Of a stretch of 64,000 nt of DNA, positions 5,585-61,095 are shown piece by piece. The position numbers and the translations under genes are program-made. This DNA is from Isurus oxyrinchus (Eukaryota), in NCBI GenBank assembly GCA_026770705.1, contig JANJGN010000013.1, positions 57,660,001-57,724,000 on the forward strand, in the 5' to 3' direction. Every line of letters begins with the position of its first letter. The stretch's first letter is position 1. The notes beneath the pieces are model-generated. The model ran no database searches and was not told the DNA's origin. It saw only the letters and a list, made by a program, of their open reading frames with translations.

Positions 5585-8500
5585 TTTTTTTCATAAAATG
5601 TGCTTTATTCATAAAAATATCTGAAGAAAATTACAAAGCATTTCAAACTGGTCATCACAAAAAGTGCGATCATATTCAACTTTTCCACATGGATCATGAG
5701 GTGCTTCAAAACAATCAACGAATGTTACAAGCATTTCAAAATGATCATTCCAGACAATCAGACAATGCAATGGTGTTCAAGTTATCAACATCGATCATGT
5801 TGCACTTTGAGGAACTTCAATACAATTATGATCCATTTATTATTCAGTGCAACATTCATTGTGGGTCATGCAGCCTGAGGGGTCGATACAATTCCCAGTC
5901 CATCGGTGCACTATGGCAGTCAGGTCTTAGACAGTGACCTTTCGCCATTGCACCTTTGTGGCTGCTGCCCCAAGCTTTAGTGCGTCACTCAGCAGGTAGT
6001 CCTGGACCTTGGAATGTGCCAGTCTGCAACACTCAGCTGCGGGCAGTTCCATGCACTGGAAGACCAACAAGTTGCGGACAGAACAAAGACCATCTTTCAT
6101 GAGTTGATTATCCTCCAGCTGCAGTTGGTGTTTGTCTCGGGGTGTGACCCTGAGAACAATCTGTACAGCATAGAGTCCTGTGTCACAGCACTGCTCAGGA
6201 TGAACCTTGACAAAAACCGCTGCATCTCTCTCCAGACCTTCTTTGCAAAGGTACATTCCACAAGGAGATGAACAACGGTCTCTTCCCCAACACAGCCACT
6301 TCGAGGGCAACATGGGGAGGGGGTGAGACTCCTGGCATGTAGAAAGGGTCTGACAGGGAGGGCCTTTCTCACCACCAACCAAGCTACATCTTCGTGCTTA
6401 TTGGAAAGTTCTGGTGATGAGGCATTCTGCCATATGGCTTTGTCCAGTCTGCCTGGGTACCGTACAACAGGATCCACCATCTCCTTTTCCCTCAGGGTCT
6501 CTAGGACGTTATATGCCCATCACCGTCTGATGGACTTGTGGTCAAAAGTGTTTCTCTGCATAAATTTTTCCAAGGGGGTACAGAAGGTACAGCAAAGTCC
6601 AAATGCTTGGAGCGTTCTGTGGCAGCGTGGTCAGACCCATCCTTCACAATACCAGGGTCAGGTAGAATCTCAGCATGCAGTGACATTTGGTGTTTGCATA
6701 CCGAGGGCCTACGCATAGCTTGATGCAGCCACACACAATATGGCCATCAGGATGAAGGCAATGTTGGGAATATTTTTCCCCTTCAGTTAGAGGTTTATAC
6801 ATTGTGTCCCTGCAAATATGATCGATTTGCAGCCTCCAGATAAAGCGAAAGATGACTTAGGTGATCGCCACTGCGCAGGAGTGAGAAATGGGCCAGACCT
6901 GCGCCTCATACAGTTACAGCAAGAGTACCTCACACCTGATGACCAGGTTCTTACTTGCAATGGACAGGGAGCATTGCTGCTACATGCCCAGTTTTAATTT
7001 CATCATAGTCACTCGGTCCTTCCAATTTCTAACACATACCCTGGTCCCTCCAAACCATATCCCCAGCACTGCTAGGCCATCTGACCTGATGTTGAAGTAG
7101 TCAAAGGATTGGTCAGCCCAGCTCCCAAAGGACATGGCTTCACTCTTGCCACAATTTACCTTGACTCCTCAGGCCAGTTCAAAATGGTTGCAGATGTTGA
7201 TCAGCCTGCACGCTGACATGAGATCCGAGAAGAAGCTGGCAACATCGGCCATGTACAGGGAGGCTTTGACCTGAGTGTCTGCACTGCCTGGGATCATCAC
7301 TCCTCTTATGCCCGGATCCTTCCTGATGGACTCAGCAAAGGGTTCTATGCAACACACAAACAGGACATGGGAGAGAGTGTAGACCTGCCTGACACCAGAT
7401 TTAATTGGCAAGAATTCTGTTTCCCACCCATTGATTGAGACTGCGCTACATATGTTTGTGAAGAGCAGTTGGATCCAGTTAGAGGTTTGGGAGAGCACAT
7501 CCACCATGTAGGTGTGCAATACTCTGTTAAAGGCCTTTTTCTGGTCCAGGCTGATGAGGAAGGTGTCCACTCTCCTGCTCCATACATAGGCAGTCATATT
7601 CCTGAGTAGCACAAAGCTGTCCTGCTGGGTACAGTGCAGGTCTGGTCAAGGTGGATCACCAACTCCAGAGTGGACTTGACCCGATCTGCGATGATGTTGG
7701 ACAAAATCTTATGGCTGACATTCAACAGTGAGATGGGTCGCCAATTTCTAATTTCCCCCCTTTCCCCCTTGTGCTTGTAGATGAGGGTGATGATGCATTT
7801 AGTCATGGATTCTGACATGCAGCCAGGCAGGATCATACTCTTGTACACTTCTAGCAGGCCTGGGCCGATGTAGACCCACAGAGCTGAATACAACTCAGCC
7901 GGCAAGCCATCGCTTCTGGGAGTTTTACTCTTCTTGAAGGACTCAAGGGCCTTAGTCAGTTTGTCAGGAGTTAGCAGTTTGTCCAGCCTCTCTCGAGTAC
8001 TGTCATCTAAGACCTCCATGTTAGAGGGCAGGAAGGCCTGGGAGGCCGTGCTGTATGTGGGCTTCACGCCATACAATCCGACATAATAGGATTTGCTGAC
8101 GCTCAAAATGTCAGACTGCAATGACTTTACTGAGCCATCTTCTTCCTTCAGGCTGCTGATCACAGGGCTCTCTCTGTGTACCTGTTGGAAGAAGAAACAT
8201 GAACACGTCTCATCCTGCTCCACACACAGGGCTCTGGACCGCAAGATGAACCTGGAGGTCTCCGAGGCAAAGAGCGAGTCTTGCTGGCTCTTCACAGCTT
8301 GGAGTTGCTCCTTGACATCGACCCCCATTGACTGCAGTCAGAACAGGTTCTGCATGCTTTTCTGGAGTCGGGACATTTCCCTCTAGCTTTATGGACACCT
8401 TTGAGGGTAAAAAAACATCTTGATGTTCTCCTTAATCGCTTCCCACCATGTGCCACAAACTCAAGGAGGGTTTTCACAGATTGCCAACCCTTGTAATACC

Positions 8501-9180
8501 TTTTGAGTTCCCCAATGTTCTCTGGGGTCAGCAGTTGCACTTTCAGCTTCCATGAGCCCCTGCCAACCCTCTGGCCTTCCTGTAAGTGACAGTCAGTCAG
8601 TAGGAGACAGTGGTCAGAGAAGAACACCGGCTTGACGTCGGTGGATCTGACGGTGAATGCAGAGGACACAGAGGGGAAGTCTTTCCTGGAACGGCTGGAC
8701 CCGTCTGGCCATGACCAGGTGTATCTCCGCTGCGCTCCGTCTGCAGGGTTGCTGAAAGTGACGTGCAGCTTGGCATCCTTTACTGTTTCCATCAGGAGTC
8801 TGGACGTGGCATCCGGTCTGCTTTCGGCCCTGCTGGATCGTCCAGCTGCGTGGATGATACAGTTGAAGTCATCGCCCAGAATGACCAGCCTGGAAGACGC
8901 CAGCAGCGTTAACGTACCGTCAGCCACTCGCTGTTTTGAGCTGGGGCATACACATTAATTAACTGGAGCGGAGCATTCTTGTATAATACGTCTGCCACGA
9001 GGAGGCGTCCGCCCACCACCTCGTCAGCCTCGGAGACGGTGAAGTTGTCTCCCCGCAGCAGACTACCCAGGCCGGTGGAACGTGGGTCGTTTCCTCCCGA
9101 CCAGATCGATGGCCTATGGGGCTACCATCGTGACTACTTCATTTAGGGATTGAGGTGCAGTATCGCACAGTCCTGCAGAA
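5585..9180 (-). mobile_element. Tx1-like (L1 clade) non-LTR retrotransposon, ORF2 with frameshifts, 5' truncated
   Basis: Minus-strand ORF pieces: AP endonuclease (ILGDDFNC, YTW, SDH), RT (KTPRSDGLPAELY, WRPISLLN, LISLDQKKAF, SGVRQ, LYMADV), and C-terminal CPRSGC..EETVVHLLVEC zinc knuckle. Poly(A) signal and tail are seen as T-run/TTTATT at ~5585-5610. Confidence 0.9.
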
Positions 9181-19819: not shown

Positions 19820-20915
19820 ACCAGCCCGTCGAAGGGTTCCAACTCCGCTGGTTGGAGTTATACCTAGCACAAAGGAAGATGGTTGTGATTGTTAGAGGTC
19901 AATCATCTCAGTTCAGGACATCACTGCAGTTTAGTGTATTCTGGTGTAGAGTATTCAGAATAGTGTCCTTGACGCAACCATATTCAGCTGCTTCATCAAT
20001 TACCTTCCCTCCACATAACATCAGCAGTGGGGATATTTGCGGATAGTTGCACAGTGACTCCTCAGATACTGAAAAAGTCCATGTCCAAATGCTGCAAGAT
20101 CTGAACAATATCCAGGCTTGGGCTGAGAAGTGGCAAGTAACATTCACACCACACAACTGATCAACTCCAACAAGGGAGAATGTAACCATCGCCCCTTGAT
20201 ATTAAATGGTATTATCATTGCTAAATCTGCCACTATCAAAATCCTAGGGATTACCATTGACCAGAAATTGAACCGAACATGCCATGTAAATACTGTGACT
20301 GCAAGGGCAAAGCAGGAGCTAGGGAGCCTGCGGCGAGTAACTCACCTCCTCACCCCCCAAAGCCTGTCCACCATCTACAAGGCACAAGTCAGGAGTGTGA
20401 AAGAATATTCTCCACTGGCCTGCATGAGTGCAGCTCTCAAGACACTTAAGAAACTTGACACCATCCGGGATAAAGCAGCCATTTGCTGGCACCCCATCCA
20501 CAAACATTCACTCCCTCCACCACGGATGAACAGTGGCAGCAGTGTGTACCATCTACATGATGCACTGCAGGAATTCACCAAGGCTCCTTAGGCAGCATCT
20601 TCCAAACCCAAAACAAAAACAGAATTACCTGGAAAAACTCAGCAGGTCTGGCAGCATCGGCAGAGAAGAAAAGAGTTGACGTTTCGAGTCCTGACGTTTT
20701 GAGGACTCGAAACGTCAACTCTTTTCTCTGCCGATGCTGCCAGACCTGCTGAGTTTTTCCAGGTAATTCTGTTTTTGTTTTGGATTTCCAGCATCCGCAG
20801 TTTTTTTGTTTTTATCTTCCAAACCCAAGGCCAGTACCATCGGGAAGGGCAAGGGCAGCACGTACATGGGAACATGACCACCTGGAAATTCCCCTCCAAG
20901 CCACCCACAATTCCA
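19820..20915 (+). mobile_element. CR1-like LINE RT C-terminus and 3' region
   Basis: ORF 20130-20591 (LGITIDQKLN...IYKAQVRSVKEY) is paralogous to 62089-62631. Confidence 0.85.
20597..20828. mobile_element. palindromic Penelope-terminus insertion with 15-bp TSD
   Basis: ATCTTCCAAACCCAA at 20597-20611 and 20814-20828; the interior is two inverted copies of the PLE terminus. Confidence 0.9.
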
Positions 20916-27381: not shown

Positions 27382-28976
27382 GCGATGATTACTTCGGTGC
27401 TGCCTCATGCTCTCTCGGGACTTGGAAAAATTTATTAATTTTGCTTCCAATTTCCACCCCTCCATTATTTTCACGTGGTCCATCTCTGACACTTCCCTTC
27501 CCTTCCTTGACCTCTCTGTCTCAATCTCTGGTGATAGACTGTCCACCGATATCCACTACAAACCCACCAACTCCCACAGCTACCTCGACTACAGCTCCTC
27601 ACACCCGGCTTCCTGTAAGGACTCCATCCCATTCTCTCAGTTCCTTCGCCTCCGTCGCATCTGTTCCGATGATGCTACCTTCAAAAACAGTTCCTCTGAC
27701 ATGTCCTCCTTCTTCCTTAACCGAGGTTTTCCACCCACGGTCGTTGACAGGGCCCTCAACCCTGTCCGGCCCATGTCCCACGCATCCGCCCTCACGCCTT
27801 CTCCTCCCTCCCAAAAACATGATAGGGCCCCCCTTGTCCTCACTTTTCACCCCACCAGTCTCCGCATTAAAAGGATCATCCTACACCATTTCCGCCAACT
27901 CCAGCATGATGCCACAACCAAACACATCTTCCCTTCACACCCCCTGTCGACATTCCATAGGGATCGTTCCCTCCGGGACACCCTGGTCCACTCCTCCATC
28001 ACCCCTACTCCTCAACCCCCTCCTATGGCACCACCCCATGCCCACACAAAAGATGTAACACCTGCCCCTTCGCTTCCTCTCCCCTCACCGTCCAAGGGCC
28101 CAAACACTCCTTTCAAGTGAAGCAGCATTTCACTTGCATTTCCCCCAACTTAGTCTACTGCATTCGTTAATCCCAATGTGGTCTCCTCTCCATTGGAGAG
28201 ACCAAACGTAAACTGGGCGACCGCTTTGCAGAACACCTGCGGTCTGTGCACAAGAATGACCCAAACCTCCCTGTCGCTTGCCATTTTAACACTCCACCCT
28301 GCTCTCTTGCCCACATGTCTGTCCTTGGCTTGCTGCATTGTTCCAGTGAATCTCAATGCAAACTGGGGAACAGCACCTCATCTTCCGACTAGGCACTTTA
28401 CAGCCTTCTGGACTGAATATTGAGTTCAACAAGTTTAGATCTTGAACTCCCTCCTCCATCCCCACCCCCTTTCCGTTTCTTCCCCCTCCCTTGTGTTTTT
28501 TTTTTCCAATAATTTATATAGATTTTTCTTTTCCCAGCTATTTCCATTATTTTTAAATATTTTAAAATCTTTTATGCTCCCCCACCCCCACTAGAGCTAT
28601 ACCTTGAGTGCCCTACCATCCATTCTTAATTAGCACATTCGTTTAGATAATATCACCAACTTTAACACCTATGTGTTCTTTTTTTCTGTTGCCTGTGACA
28701 TCTTTTGATGATCTGCTTCTATCACTGCTTGTTTGTCCCTACAAACATACCATCCCCCCCCCCCCCCCCACATCTCTCTCCCCACCCAAACCAGCCCCCC
28801 ATCTCCCGCCCCCACACACGCACCTTAAACCAGCTTATATTTCACCCCTTCCTTGGATTCACCTAGTTCTGTTGAAGGGTCATGAGGACTCGAAACGTCA
28901 ACTCTTTTCTTCTCCGCCGATGCTGCCAGACCTGCTGAGTTTTTCCAGGTAATTCTGTTTTTGTTTTTGTTTTTGT
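27382..28976 (+). mobile_element. Penelope-like element (RT C-terminus, GIY-YIG endonuclease, terminal repeat), 5' truncated
   Basis: Begins at DDYFGA (RT active site). Contains LPFLDL, TDIHYKPTNSHSYLDYSSSHP..CKDSIPFSQFLRLRRICS and NLVYCIR*SQCGLLSIGETKRKLGDRFAEH (GIY-YIG, with a stop). Confidence 0.93.
28865..28903 (+). ncRNA. minimal type I hammerhead ribozyme-like motif in PLE terminus (variant core)
   Basis: AGTT-CTGTTGA-A-GGGTC-ATGAG-GACTC-GAA-ACGT-C-AACT: stem I AGTT/AACT, stem II GGGTC/GACTC, palindromic ACGT stem III, GUC triplet. Confidence 0.7.
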
Positions 28977-30069
28977 TTGCGAGAAGGCTGTTGCATGTCG
29001 CGTATTTCCTTATTAAAGCATCAGTGATTTCGATTCCCTTTCATTTTTATGATTCATTACTCCCTAAGGCGTAATTGATTTTTGAAATCAACCGGGTAAA
29101 TAGCACAATCCTTGATGACATTGTTCTCACGAATAGCGTTTTATTTCATGTTTGAATGGAGAGCGCATTTTGACGAGAATAAATGACATCAGTTTCAATG
29201 TAGTACTGTGGCAGGGGGTGGGATAACAGGTTATTCATTATAGAGGCCTTGGAATCACCAGCTCGCGCGTCCCGCGCTGCTCACAAGCTGCCGTCTCGGA
29301 CCGAGATGATGGAGACTTTCGAGGAGCATTGAGGATTGACTTGTGTCATTGCACAAAGAGCGGGAAATCTGTGAACCAACAAGTTTCGTTCACTTTGAGC
29401 ACGAAGAATGATATTGAAGTGAGTCGCTGCTACTTAGGGCAGTTGGCATTAGAACATTCCATTCCATTCTGCTGTTTCTGCTGCGAGGGAAACATAATAA
29501 GAAGATCTCCAATTGAGCGCGACATTATCATTGTTCAATCATTAAATAATATCATCAGTGAACTCCACAAATCGTTCCAGGTAACATTTCTTAAACCAGC
29601 GATGGGTGTTAAATTTTATATTTCGTCACTTTCTCGCTGTAGAGGGGAAGCTTCCAAATGTTTGACACTCAGGACAGCTGGTCCAATGGAAATTCCGGCA
29701 TCCTTTCACTTACCTACTCTGTCCAAGCACACAGGACCCACCCACGGCTCTAAAGTAGTTATCACACCCTTGCCTCACATACGTACACCACACCGCACAA
29801 TCTCACGCCACACACACATAAATAAACCCCAACCCCCAGCCAACACAGCCCCCTCCACAAAAACCCTCTCCCACACATACCTACTCACAGACAAACTCCT
29901 CTGCACATTACCCTGCCACCGCTCCTCCCCGCACCCTCCGACGCATTCTCCCCAACGCACAACAGCCCCACACAAATTCGCCTCTCACACACCATCACTC
30001 CCATGTATGCTTCACACAAACTATAGTGCTCGCACACACATTTCAGGTTTGCGCGCAACCAGGCAAACT

Positions 30070-31024
30070 TCATCCCCACCACACACTAAGCCACACATGC
30101 ACACTCCCACGCAAAACCATGAAAGCTGCCCCATACATACACACCCCAACGCACCACCCCTCCACACTCTGTCGCCCAACGGACATCAATCCCCTCCCCC
30201 TCCCCCTCAGCCCCTCCACCAGGAACTCTCCCCACCACCCCCAATCCAAGCACACACACCACCCTCCAAGCACACCACCATGCATACCACCATGCACATA
30301 CACTTCCCTTTCACACAGACACATACACAGACACACACACACACACGCATAATCCATCATCACTCATACCCTAACAAGAAGCCAAGGAAAAACAGACAGA
30401 AAAACAGAATATTCACACAATACCAAATTAATTTACCCGCACCCCCATGCACCTCAAACACTGAAAATATGCCAGCCTCCCAAGACGTGCCTACATACAT
30501 ATTTTTTGTCTTGTCCTGTTATCCTACTCTTTTACCTTGTATAACTCATCCCCACCACACACTAAGCCACACATGCACACTCCCACGCAAAACCATGAAA
30601 GCTGCCCCATACATACACACCCCAACGCACCACCCCTCCACACTCTGTCGCCCAACGGACATCAATCCCCTCCCCCTCCCCCTCAGCCCCTCCACCAGGA
30701 ACTCTCCCCACCACCCCCAATCCAAGCACACACACCACCCTCCAAGCACACCACCATGCATACCACCATGCACATACACTTCCCTTTCACGCAGACACAT
30801 ACACAGACACACACACACACGCATAATCCGTCATCACTCATACCCTAACAAGAAGCCAAGGAAAAACAGACAGAAAAACAGAATATTCACACAATACCAA
30901 ATTAATTTACCCGCACCCCCATGCACCTCAAACACTGAAAATATGCCAGCCTCCCAAGACGTGCCTACATACATATTTTTTGTCTTGTCCTGTTATCCTA
31001 CTCTTTTACCTTGTATAACTCATC
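30070..31024. repeat. ~476-bp near-perfect tandem duplication of C/A-rich sequence
   Basis: TCATCCCCACCACACACTAAG at 30070 and 30546; only a few differences; TCATC at all three junctions. Confidence 0.95.
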
Positions 31025-32589
31025 AAAGCATTCAATAAACGAACACATTTTAAGGAGCAGTAGCCCGAACGTGCAGATGTTCTGGCATGTTGTAGTGGGC
31101 ACTTGCTCGCGTTCTTAAGCAAAATTAACCTGTTTCCAATGTATAATGAGACATGAAAGACAGTGTACTGAGGCCACGAGAGTCATTGTGGAGAATGTTA
31201 TCAGAAAGTTTCAAGTGGAGTCGATTATCCCCTAAAGGGCTACAAGGTAAATTTGCTATGTTGAATGTGGAAACTGATTCAGGATAGTGAAGGTTAAAGC
31301 AATGGTATCCTCGGGTGCACAGAGGCACAACAAAGAGTCTGCGAACAATCTCTTAGCTTGGAGTTCATAATGGCAACATGAAAGTTGCCATCTATTTAGT
31401 GGTATAGTCGAATTAACGTTCAATGTCCCGTATGGATATGAGGCATCTGGATGAAAAGATTCGGACACTTTTCCGAACTATCTGCATTCTGTAGTATGCA
31501 GAATATTACTGACCTCAAGCACGTGGTCATAAAGGCCTCTAACCCCAGTATCAACACTTTCAGAAACAGAAATGGTGACCACAGGTACAGAATCTAGAAA
31601 GTCATTTCCACAATTTTGCACGGCTTTATGTGGGGATCCAGGATTGTCAGAGGTGTATTAAAAGGGGAAATTAGGTAAGAATATGAATGAGAAGGAAATA
31701 AGGGAATGAGCAGATAGTGTTCCATGAAGTAGGGATGGGACGTTCATGTGCAACATTATCTCAACTTTCCCACCTGCTCCCATAACTATTGACTCCCTTG
31801 TTGACCTATAAACGGTCAAACTCAACCTTCAATGTAATCAATAACCCAGCCTCCCCCGTTCTATTGTGCACAGAATGCCAACATGAACGATATTCTGAGA
31901 GAATACATTCTCCTTACCTCTGTCTTAAATTGGAGACCCCTTATTTTAAAATGTGTCTCCTAGTTCAAAGCTCTCCACGAAGGGAAAACCTAGCAACATC
32001 CACCCTGTCAATCCCCCTCTGAATCTTATATGCTTCAATGTGATCATTCCCCCATTCTTCTAAACATCCAAAGAGTATAGGCCCAGTCTGCTCAACCTTT
32101 CCTCAGAAGTTCACCTCGTTATCGCAGAAATCAGCCTCGTGAACGTTCACCAAATTGCCTCCAGTGCAGGTATATAACTATTTAATTAAGGAGACCAAAA
32201 CTGTACACAATATTCTAAGTGTGCGTTTACCAATGTTCTGTACAGTTGTAACAAGACTTCGCTACCTTTATACCACAATAAAGGGACCATAGGGAATGTG
32301 AGTTGCGAGGAGAATGCAAAATGGCTTCAAGGCGAAGCAGGCAAGCTAAGAGAATTAGCAAGAACATGGCAATTGGACAATCATTTGGAACACGTGAAAT
32401 TAGCCACTTTGGTCGGAAACAGACTGGTAGGTTCACTAGACTAATCGCAGAGATGGCGGGATTGTTCTATGAGGAGTGATTGAGGACCGCGGGCCTGTAT
32501 TCTCCAGAGTTTAGAAGAATGAGAGGTGATCTCATTGAAGCATACAAAATTCTCACTGGGTTCCACAGGGTAGATGCAGGATGGATGAT

Positions 32590-43274: not shown

Positions 43275-43585
43275 TATAAGAAATGAAAAAACAAAAACAG
43301 AATTACCTGGAAAAACTCAGCAGGTCTGGCAGCATCGGCGGAGAAGAAAAGAGTTGACCTTTCGAGTCCTCATGACCCTTCGAAAGAACTTGATTTCGAG
43401 TCCAAGAAAGAGTTTCAACTCTTGGACTCGAAATCAAGATCTGTCGAAGGGTCATGAGGACTCGAAAGGTCAACTCTTTTCTTCTCCGCCGATGCTGCCA
43501 GACCTGCTGAGTTTTTCCAGGTAATTCTGTTTTTGTTTTGGATTTCCAGCATCCGCAGTTTTTTTTTGTTTTTATAAGAAATGAA
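43275..43585. mobile_element. palindromic Penelope-terminus insertion with 13-bp TSD
   Basis: TATAAGAAATGAA at 43275-43287 and 43573-43585; ~115-bp inverted arms. Confidence 0.9.
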
Positions 43586-44015: not shown

Positions 44016-44228
44016 CCTTTCCAGTACATAAAAACAAAGAAAACTGCGGATGCTGGAAATCCAAAACAAAAACAGAATTACCTGGAAAAACTCAGCAGGT
44101 CTGGCAGCATCGATGGAGAAGAAAAGAGTTGACGTTTCGAGTCCTCATGACCCTTCGACAGAGACATGAGGACTCGAAACGTCAACTCTTTTCTTCTCCA
44201 TCGATGCTGCCAGACCTTTCCAGTACAT
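44016..44228. mobile_element. palindromic Penelope-terminus insertion with 14-bp TSD
   Basis: CCTTTCCAGTACAT at 44016-44029 and 44215-44228. Confidence 0.9.
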
Positions 44229-58364: not shown

Positions 58365-60520
58365 TCCTGTGGATGCCAGACGTCTAAAGTTAAAACAGAA
58401 AATACATGGCTGGCCAAGCATCATCTGTGGAGTGGAATACAGAGTTAACGCTTCAGTCGCTGACCGTTCATCAGAACTGAGAAAAGTTAGAATTGTAATA
58501 GGTTTTAAACAAGTGAAAGTGGGAGAGCGGGAAATAGGACAAAACGGAAGGTCTGTGATATGATGAAAGACAGGCGGGATTAAATGGCTAAAGAGTGGGT
58601 GATGCAGGGTCAAAGGAAATGGTAACCGGCCAATTAAGGAAATAAAAGGTGTAACTGGAGGAAGTCTGTATGGCAGAACGGTGAACAGCTGACGTCCAAA
58701 AGCAAGGACAACAAGGAAAAAACAGTTAAAAACAAAGACTGCTAAAAGAAAATAAAACACAAGGAGCAAAGGTTACAATTATTGTTGAACTCAATGTTGA
58801 GTCCAGAATGTTATTAAGTTCTTAATCAAAAGATGAGATTCTGTTCCTCGAACATACGTTGAGTTTCATTGGAAAACAAAGCGGAAGGCCGAGAACCGAG
58901 AGATTAGCATACGAACAAGGAGCAGGAAATCTGCATCCCACGTACCCCCGATAACCTATCGTTCCCTTGCTTACCAAGGATCTACCCGCCTCTGCCTTAA
59001 AAATATTCAAAGCCTCTGCTTCCACCACCTTTTCAGGAAGAGAGTTCCAAAGACTCACTACCCTCTGAATAAAAAAAAATAGCCTCATCTCTGTTTTAAA
59101 TGGGAGATCTCTTATTTTTAAACAGTGGCCCCTAGTTCTAGATTCTCCACCCTGTCAAGACCTCTCAGGATCTTATACATTTCAATCAAATTGCCTCTTA
59201 CTCTTCTAAATTCCAACCTGGTCTGCCCAACCTTGCCTCATAAGACAACCCACCCATTCCAGGTAATAGTCTGGTAAATACTCTCTGAACTGCTTCCAAC
59301 GCATTTACATCCTTCCTTAAATAAGGTGACCAAGACTGTACACAGTAGTCCAAATGTGGTCCCACTAACGCCCTGTACAACTGAAGCATAACTTCCCTAC
59401 GTTTGCATTCAATTCCCCTTGCACTATATGATAACATTCTATTAGCTTTCCTAATTGCTTTCTGTACTTGCACACTATTCCTTTGGGATCGGCGGTGACA
59501 TTGTAAAATGTCAGACGACCAGAAGCTCGGGTCGTGCTTGCTGACTGAATAGAATTGTGCTGCAAAGCTTTTACACAATCTTCGTTTGGTCTCCCCAGTG
59601 CAGAGTAGACTTTGTGAGCATTGTGAGCAGTGAACATGATATACTAAGTTGAAAGAAGTCCACGTAAATAATTATTTCACCTGAAAGTTTTTGGTCTTGG
59701 ATGGTAAAGCACAGCGGAGGTTAAAGGACATGTGTTCTATCTCCGATGTTTGCATAGAAAGTGGCCATGGGAAGGGGAGGGATTGTTAGTGGTTTAAAAG
59801 TGGACCAGGGTGTCGCAGAGGGCACGGCTCCTTCAGAATGCTGAAAGCGAACTGGATGGGTGGTACTTTCATGAACAAGGTGGTGGAAATGTTGGAGGAT
59901 AATCCGTTGAATACGGAGGCTGGTGGGTGGAAGGTACTGACACGGGGAACCCTATCGTTATTTTTTAAGAGTTGAAGGGTGAGAGCAGAATTGTGGGAAA
60001 TGGGGCGGAACAGGTCCAGGTTCCTGTCAACCACGATGGGCATCCTTGGTTTATGAAATAGGAAGACATTTCAGAAACGCTGGTATGGAAAGTTATGCAT
60101 TCAGAACGAATGTAACAGAGATAGAGAAATTGCAAGGATGGAATGGGGCACTTACGGAAGCAAGGCATGAGTAAGTTTTTTCAAGGCAGCTGTTGGAGTG
60201 GGGTAGCGTTATAGTAAATATTTGTGACACTTTATCATTGGAAATGGAGGCAGCGCAGGGAAGGAAAGAGTTGGAGGTGGATCATGTGTAGGCGAGAGAA
60301 GCATGGATATTGGAAGCAGTGTTGATGAAATTTTCCAGTCCGGGGTAATAGCAAGAAATGGAATCATCAATTATTGGAAAAGGAGGTGAGGGAGGGAATC
60401 TGAATAGGACCGGAGCAGGAAAAGTTCCACATATTCAACAAAAGGACAGGCACAGCCAGGATCCATACTCACTACAACACTTATCATTTGGAAGAAGTGA
60501 GTGAAATTAAAGGAGAAGCT
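58365..60520 (-). mobile_element. older Penelope-like element with a nested CR1 fragment (~58925-59480)
   Basis: Minus-strand remnants PIPSLQFL and LLCTGETKRRL (GIY-YIG); terminus with AGTT-CTGATGA...AACT at 58443-58478. Confidence 0.85.
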
Positions 60521-60709: not shown

Positions 60710-61095
60710 TCGATCCCTTCCCCGCTCCCCCCCTCCCCCCACCCCACCCCCATTAGAGCTATCTGTACCTTTATTATCACATTCCTTAGATAATATCACC
60801 AGCTTCAACACCTCTTTTTCCTTTTGTCAATGACATCTTTTGGTTATCTCCACATATCACTGGCCCTCTATCCAGCTCTATCTGTCCCACCTCCACGCCC
60901 CACCCCCCCCCAACCCCCCAAACTAGCTTATATTTCACCTCTTTTCTATTTTTCATTAGTTCTGTTGAATAGTCATACGGACTCGAAACATTAACTGTGT
61001 TCGTCTCCACAGATGCTATTAGGCCTGCTGAGTTTTTCCAGGTATTTTTGTTTTTGTTTTGGATTTCCAGCATCTGCAGTTTTTTGCTTTTATTT
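60710..61095 (+). mobile_element. Penelope terminal repeat fragment
   Basis: Matches 28580-28976; hammerhead-like AGTT-CTGTTGA...GACTCGAAACATTAACT at 60958-60996. Confidence 0.85.

Follow-up and report, generated by a model that had tools for sequence, protein, structure and literature searches.

The window, i.e. the whole stretch of 64,000 nt of the Isurus oxyrinchus genome that was analysed, contains at 27383-28973 (+) a 5'-truncated and decayed copy of a Penelope-like retrotransposon (PLE), likely of the Neptune type, which is 90.9% identical along 1598 nt with the intact unit of locus L052 and which carries the spacer and tail of the subfamily denoted S8. It comprises the broken 3' part of an ORF for an RT thumb, a CxxC linker and a GIY-YIG domain (27389-28445; the frame is open from 27389 to 28120 and the family stop lies at 28443-28445), and a pseudo-LTR (pLTR) plus tail (28446-28973). 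A Pfam search of the broken ORF fragment returned zero matches. A TATA-like box with a putative promoter role is found at 28836-28842, 29 nt upstream of the presumed transcription start, and the segment 28949-28973 includes the first of the two positions at which 3' ends preferentially fall (about +103; the second is +135) together with a possible donor site of a 5'-UTR intron (CAG-GTAATT), where splicing may occur. In loci L052, L298 and L306 this possible intron would measure about 87 nt and extend from CAG-GTAATT to a weak AAG directly in front of the AUG (+85 to ~+172); genomic copies retain it.

Both in the window copy and in tandem units of the family, the hammerhead sits on the sense strand in the pLTR. 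The tandem units are about 3.34 kb long and each have an ORF of 918 codons, the product of which matches RVT_1 (E 7e-8) and, below the cut-off of Pfam, GIY-YIG (E 9e-4); YIDD and YIGET motifs are found in the element protein, and in that of L052 a CX4CxxC linker separates RT and EN. Three full-length ORFs were recovered from 13 targeted loci (97.9-99.0% identical, with U6 at both ends), and pLTRs, tandem and inverted copies and an optional tail were all encountered in the family. These features resemble those of the Neptune EN+ PLEs as far as these are described in the accessible part of Craig et al. 2021 (PMC8557442), namely a single ORF for RT plus a GIY-YIG domain at the C-terminal end, a CX2-5CxxC linker, pLTRs, tandem and inverted insertions and an optional tail of 30-40 nt. 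The element is therefore likely a Neptune-type EN+ PLE, an assignment by features and not by tree, and the linker is also found in Nematis (PMC8557442); it differs from the described Neptune elements in its non-canonical hammerhead core.

The hammerhead itself occupies 39 nt at 28865-28903 (+) and has, as read from the sequence, a minimal type I layout. The 5' arm of stem I (AGTT, 28865-28868), whose A is the putative transcription start (+1), is followed by the core CTGTTGA (28869-28875, i.e. C3-U4-G5-U6-U7-G8-A9, with A6U at 28872), an extra A between the core and stem II (28876), and a stem II of 5 bp (28877-28891), in which GGGTC (28877-28881) pairs with GACTC (28887-28891) around the loop ATGAG (AUGAG), with G10.1-C11.1 and one G.U pair. 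Then come GAAA, i.e. G12-A13-A14-A15.1 (28892-28895), the palindrome ACGT (28895-28898), which would form an intermolecular stem III, a GUC site (segment 28892-28899) where the hammerhead model predicts a cut after C17 at 28899, and the 3' arm of stem I (AACT, 28900-28903). Core position 6 is normally fixed as A in hammerheads. The first-pass annotation had proposed a hammerhead with a U6 core at this position, and this proposal holds: all elements could be located, and a search of the 4.98-Gb genome for CTGNNGA with the family stem fixed gave 80,057 exact matches, as against 0 for the reversed pattern. Judged by its sequence, the A6U motif is a real variant of the minimal type I hammerhead of PLEs. 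In all of S5-S10 the change to the loop AUGAG has introduced an upstream AUG at +18, out of frame, which opens a uORF of 18 codons (28882-28938 in the window), and a cut at +35 would take off this AUG.

Five cores in the window had been named in the annotation and all five are present, at 28869, 43441, 44161 (-), 60962 and 58443-58478 (-), but the rest of the motif is intact only at 28869. At 43288-43572, two short S9 copies form an inverted pair with a plus-strand core CTGTCGA at 43441 and a minus-strand core CTTTCGA; C15.2G is found in both, and in the copy at 43441 GAAAGGTC breaks the palindrome and stem I reads AGAT. The minus-strand copy with a short inverted partner at 44031-44217 has the core CTGTCGA at 44161-44155 and has lost the 5' arm of stem I at the inversion junction; likewise, in an inverted pair of tails at 20604-20812 the junction has removed the 5' core box. 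The copy at 60769-61083 (+), with its hammerhead at 60958-60996 (core CTGTTGA at 60962, ACAT-T, G10.1T), had been taken for a young one, but belongs to an older U6 subfamily (S2/S3) and is partly decayed. The supposedly canonical older element at 58443-58478 (-) does have the core CTGATGA (CUGAUGA), but with GAAG instead of GAAA and a loop of 3 nt; it is an old hammerhead of a different PLE family that falls outside the U6/A6 subfamily ladder described below. An Rfam scan of the window yielded zero hammerhead model matches at E <= 5, and the miRNA matches from Rfam were rejected as inverted-repeat artefacts.

Apart from these copies, the window contains an older PLE ORF remnant with 65% identity to the young family (59529-60517, -), pieces of a non-LTR element (5927-8954, -), presumably of the Tx1/L1 type, whose frames resemble an APE endonuclease and an RT, and about 475 nt duplicated in tandem with 97-100% identity at 30070-31024 within a low-complexity open frame (29227-31038). 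In the wider set of loci, an unrelated repeat ending in AAAAT-N3-GSCC borders on old PLE tails at a single position, which precedes RTTAAC in the hammerhead (GAAACGTT). This repeat, present in L269, L272, L288, L290, L293, L294 and L296 and in about a quarter of the 100 old-tail matches listed, is presumably the end of a DNA transposon or MITE with a preferred target at RTTAAC.

The genome-wide counts indicate how general the substitution is. Among the 80,057 matches, 61,428 have CTGTCGA and only 141 (0.18%) have an A at position 6 (CTGANGA); with stem II left free, U6 accounts for 105,728 and A6 for 12,673 matches, where exact-pattern counts underestimate old families. Since 0.18% is the level expected of transversions that follow insertion, U6 is the inherited state, and the 20 A6 loci of the young family that were fetched, which lie in flanks from several young subfamilies, fit separate back-mutations. 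The family thus lacks the A of CUGANGA, and because A6 is limited to 141 of the 80,057 matches we file the motif as a variant of the PLE hammerhead and not as a canonical member. The subfamily consensus cores are CUGUUGA (older U6) and CUGUCGA (youngest) and not CUGAUGA, which lends strong support to the earlier suggestion of an inherited A6U: some nine subfamilies in succession, intact autonomous units included, have U6 as their master state. The sequencing runs considered numbered 23, all of them assembled contigs and most merely guessed to be RNA; in two comparisons with such contigs no A6 was seen at 5% or 1%, where contigs are uninformative on ends, strand and expression. An origin of U6 by CpG decay can be ruled out, since S2-S8 have U6 U7 as their ancestral state. 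The idea that U6 triggered the burst of the family is unsupported, the early U6 subfamilies being small (3,913 and 924 exact matches).

To order the subfamilies we used 303 hammerhead-like copies from 268 sequences, of which the 170 with a native promoter were clustered; these loci were mostly selected by pattern, the unselected portion being just 600 kb. As the divergence of copies from their consensus (0.034-0.059) gave no clean dating of subfamilies, the order of the ladder rests on shared diagnostic changes. It starts with S0 (A6 A7) and S1 (A6 U7), the latter with a side branch S1b (G10.2 and C17), and continues with S2/S3 (U6 U7, U17), S4 (stem II A-U to G.U, loop AUUCG), S5-S7 (loop AUGAG, C17), S8 (the window copy), S9 (C7) and a sub-master with the loop AUGAA. 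In the consensus of S0 (L083, L073), the oldest A6 subfamily, stem I has a C.A mismatch (AGCT/AACT) that is U-A in S1. From S2 to S9 the ORF shows a dN of 0.028 and a dS of 0.18 over 325 codons, while the pLTR differs at 34/264 sites and the tail at 7/62. U6 is already present in S2, i.e. about a dS of 0.18 before the youngest subfamily, and therefore predates the young burst. From S7 to S9 (L029:1470-1500), the sequence separating the TATA-like box from +1 stepwise became a near copy of the downstream TCAACTCTTT and GGACTCGAAA. On inspection, the upstream GGACTCGAAA copy in S9 was rejected as a permuted second hammerhead: it has no stem III and many S9 copies read GAAC.

The changes that followed A6U are unevenly spread over the motif. 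Free sites changed in 5 of 8 cases (N7, three loop sites and H17) and constrained sites in 1 of 31 (Fisher p = 0.0005), the sole constrained-site change being the pair-keeping transition of a stem II A-U to G.U. Of the five free sites that changed, three belong to the loop, where any hairpin would tolerate change; with the loop left out, 2 of 3 free sites (N7 and H17, both U to C) changed versus 0 of 14 core sites (p = 0.022). C3 U4 G5, G8 A9, G12 A13 A14 A15.1, U16.1 and H17 are retained in every subfamily consensus. For stems I and II, G10.1-C11.1, the extra base after A9 and the palindromic 15.2-16.2, 96.5% of 144 cells were paired, versus 1-48% in slid controls. C17 is the preferred cleavage base, and U17C is found in the A6 side branch S1b as well. 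Variants of G5 number 453 (0.7% of exact copies) and their spectrum is mixed and neutral-looking (72 A, 19 T and 9 C in the 100 matches listed), which argues against an amplified master with a mutated G5; in contrast, a sub-master with the loop-II variant AUGAA, which was picked for this test after it had been noticed, was amplified to 6,752 matches (G to A in 99 of the 100 matches listed). It had been held that a lack of stem covariation would speak against the hammerhead, and in this respect the outcome is mixed: among 16 distinct, closely related rows, 0/9 pairs vary on both sides and one changes between A-U and G.U. Moreover, the tail has changed slowly too (7/62), and much of the core conservation could reflect a general constraint on the 5' UTR or the promoter. 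As the 5' arm of stem I is also the putative initiator, its conservation says little about pairing. Taken together, the sequence comparison provides moderate evidence for a catalytic constraint.

The ends of genomic copies provide clues regarding the RNA from which they were made. Of 193 copies of the U6 lineage, 122 have the native promoter and 71 have a non-native 5' junction. Eighteen of these 71 junctions lie exactly at the A of AGTT (6/25 among the non-inverted ones) and 52 lie within 7 nt of C3, where starts inside the core are undercounted as many loci were anchored at C3. A6 copies likewise peak at +1 (6/17), and a TATA-like box is located 28-32 nt upstream of +1 in 11/11 subfamily consensuses, which points to transcription starting at the first base of the hammerhead. 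A splice acceptor (TTAG-TT) was rejected as the cause of this pile-up, given that the junctions include the A of AG and that the preceding sequence varies. The 3' ends cluster at +103 (20/99 copies) and at +135 (23/99).

Starts at the predicted cut site are comparatively rare. In the U6 family, 13 were found among the 100 matches listed of 1,303 junction matches, which corresponds to an estimated ~0.6% of copies; when 14 internal indels are set aside, 13 of the remaining 86 junctions coincide with the cut site, another 15 lie three bases before it, and several of the junctions near the cut site show microhomology to the inverted copy (all judged by eye). In old A6-type tails, about 2 among the 100 matches listed begin at the cut site, again by eye. 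The genomic junctions thus have no clear peak at the cut site in either the U6 or the A6 family, and this footprint cannot tell A6 from U6. No sign of cut ends emerged from the genome or from the putative RNA contigs. Because copy ends pile up at +1 and not at the cut site in both families, it is likely that nearly all copies were made from uncut RNA.

Folding gave no discrimination between A6 and U6 either. In six natural copies, A6 and U6 alike, the double-hammerhead fold was predicted at 7-12 kcal/mol above the co-fold minimum. The combination U6 U7 permits an inactive helix of 4 bp across the core (U4-U7 with A14-G16.2), which is weakened by C7, and the gap between the double hammerhead and two monomers decreases from 7.8 (S8) to 5.8 kcal/mol (S9), the A6 copies ranging from 5.4 to 9.1.

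With regard to what the motif does, we give about an even chance to the reading that the A6U hammerhead is a weakened, dimer- or protein-assisted candidate self-cutter, where copying would be independent of cutting and selection likely still constrains the sequence. A capped RNA would begin at the A of stem I (+1), and reverse transcription would initiate at about +103 or +135 and extend back across the uncut site at +35. Cutting would strip the first 35 nt together with their cap, or reduce read-through transcripts of tandem arrays to unit length, and it would shorten the template; a slow ribozyme may therefore cost little and be tolerated or favoured. The choice that the first-pass annotation had offered, i.e. 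either a functional core variant or a family that no longer needs self-cleavage, was too sharp, since both halves find support: the templates were likely uncut, but the motif kept evolving at positions where hammerheads tolerate change. The main rival reading, which is on the unlikely side, is that A6U abolished catalysis and that the sequence has been kept as an overlap of initiator and downstream promoter, or as a hairpin bound by the RT-EN protein. The position of stem I at the putative start, 29-32 nt from the TATA-like box, would fit such a role, as would the conservation of the tail, the apparent derivation of copies from uncut RNA and, as far as the available part of the source goes, the downstream element of the internal promoter of Drosophila Penelope (PMC2377424); yet a dead motif does not predict that the junction changes after U6 are limited to N7 and H17 (p = 0.022), nor that U17C recurs in the A6 branch S1b.

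We consider it improbable that the U6 core is fully functional natively, with protein, dimer geometry or the N7/C17 changes restoring the activity of the A6 ancestor. More than 85,000 exact young copies with intact ORFs would be in line with full function, and U7C removes one pair of the inactive U6-created helix, with the gap going from 7.8 (S8) to 5.8 kcal/mol (S9), but C7 also creates a UCGA that is able to mispair, the A6 copies occupy an equal energy range (5.4-9.1), and changes at position 6 slow cleavage in Mg in the published data that could be consulted (PMC3088659, PMC7151607, PMC9901934). A poor prospect, too, is that the motif is a neutral relic for the decay of which there has been too little time since A6U. 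Core invariance by itself is indeed not significant (the probability of no change in 14 core sites being 0.11-0.21 at local rates) and two-sided covariation is absent (0/9), but seven later events in the 39-nt motif all hit tolerated positions, and one change or fewer in 31 sites would have a probability of 0.04 if the motif changed at the synonymous rate, though of 0.09-0.15 if it changed at non-coding rates. Trans-cleavage by A6 relatives was rejected because it leaves the retention of the enzyme half unexplained. A further-reaching reading, also on the unlikely side, is that U6 would be a working natural core and the ribozyme at +1 a slow, dimer- or protein-gated switch for cap removal, that the genome would hold the complete series of masters between A6 and U6 along with subsequent tuning changes (C17, C7), and that position 6 may be a recurrent tuning point of PLEs in several animals.

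The survey of Lunse et al. is reportedly the largest one of PLE hammerheads. A search of the literature returned no natural A6U and no shark PLE hammerhead, and that survey (RNA Biol 14:1499) or its supplement may list such variants. In the accessible part of Cervera and de la Pena 2014 (PMC4209133), the minimal hammerheads of metazoan PLEs agree with the motif in their pLTR position, the extra base between A9 and stem II, G10.1-C11.1, the GAAA-C-G-U-H palindrome without loop III, the short stem I and the U-rich flanks. They differ from it in having A6 in 44/44 of the Fig. S3 rows examined (56 in total), rows which include no cartilaginous fish, and the sole core variant named in the text is U3-A8. 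The hammerhead of the anole Poseidon element PAc, as described in the available sections of Frangieh et al. 2024 (PMC11167929), cuts only with protein, while cutting is dispensable for insertion in vitro. PAc likewise has two nearby internal RT start sites downstream of the hammerhead (compare the 3' ends at ~+103 and +135 here), uncut RNA as template (which is our inference for the present family) and no ends at the cut site, whereas no position-6 variant is reported in those sections and its start codon lies within the hammerhead. In the present family, about 140 nt separate the cut site from the start of the ORF, which lies beyond it, and the linker is of the Neptune type (CX4CxxC).

A known natural variant at position 6 is the A6C hammerhead of phage Bcep176 (Perreault 2011, PMC3088659; Naghdi 2020, PMC7151607), which, according to the portions of these papers at hand, has low activity in Mg and good activity in Mn, A6C lowering the rate sharply in Mg (PMC7151607). 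The two cases share a natural substitution at position 6, but in the phage it is a C in one sequence with measured activity, whereas here it is a U known by sequence from more than 100,000 retroelement copies, with A6 ancestors that persist in the same genome. Deep mutational scanning found low activity for every single mutant of CUGA and, in the part of the report available, only the C3-G8 swap was rescued (PMC9901934). The literature compared, in part, further includes PMC6765202, PMC11014351 and bioRxiv 10.64898/2026.07.22.740005.

PLE hammerheads cut poorly in vitro, insertion proceeds without cutting in the one reconstituted system, and Naiads thrive without hammerheads. As PLE hammerheads were known beforehand to be weak cutters whose cutting can be dispensed with in vitro, the surprise of a substituted core is modest. 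The genome nevertheless amounts to a natural experiment, with ordered masters before and after the core substitution and intact autonomous proteins, in which the cleavage rate is measurable step by step. If the U6 core is active, A6U would become one of the few natural cores that work, and searches based on CUGANGA would miss very large families (105,728 matches versus 12,673 canonical ones); if it is inactive, a PLE would retain the shape of a dead ribozyme for another job.
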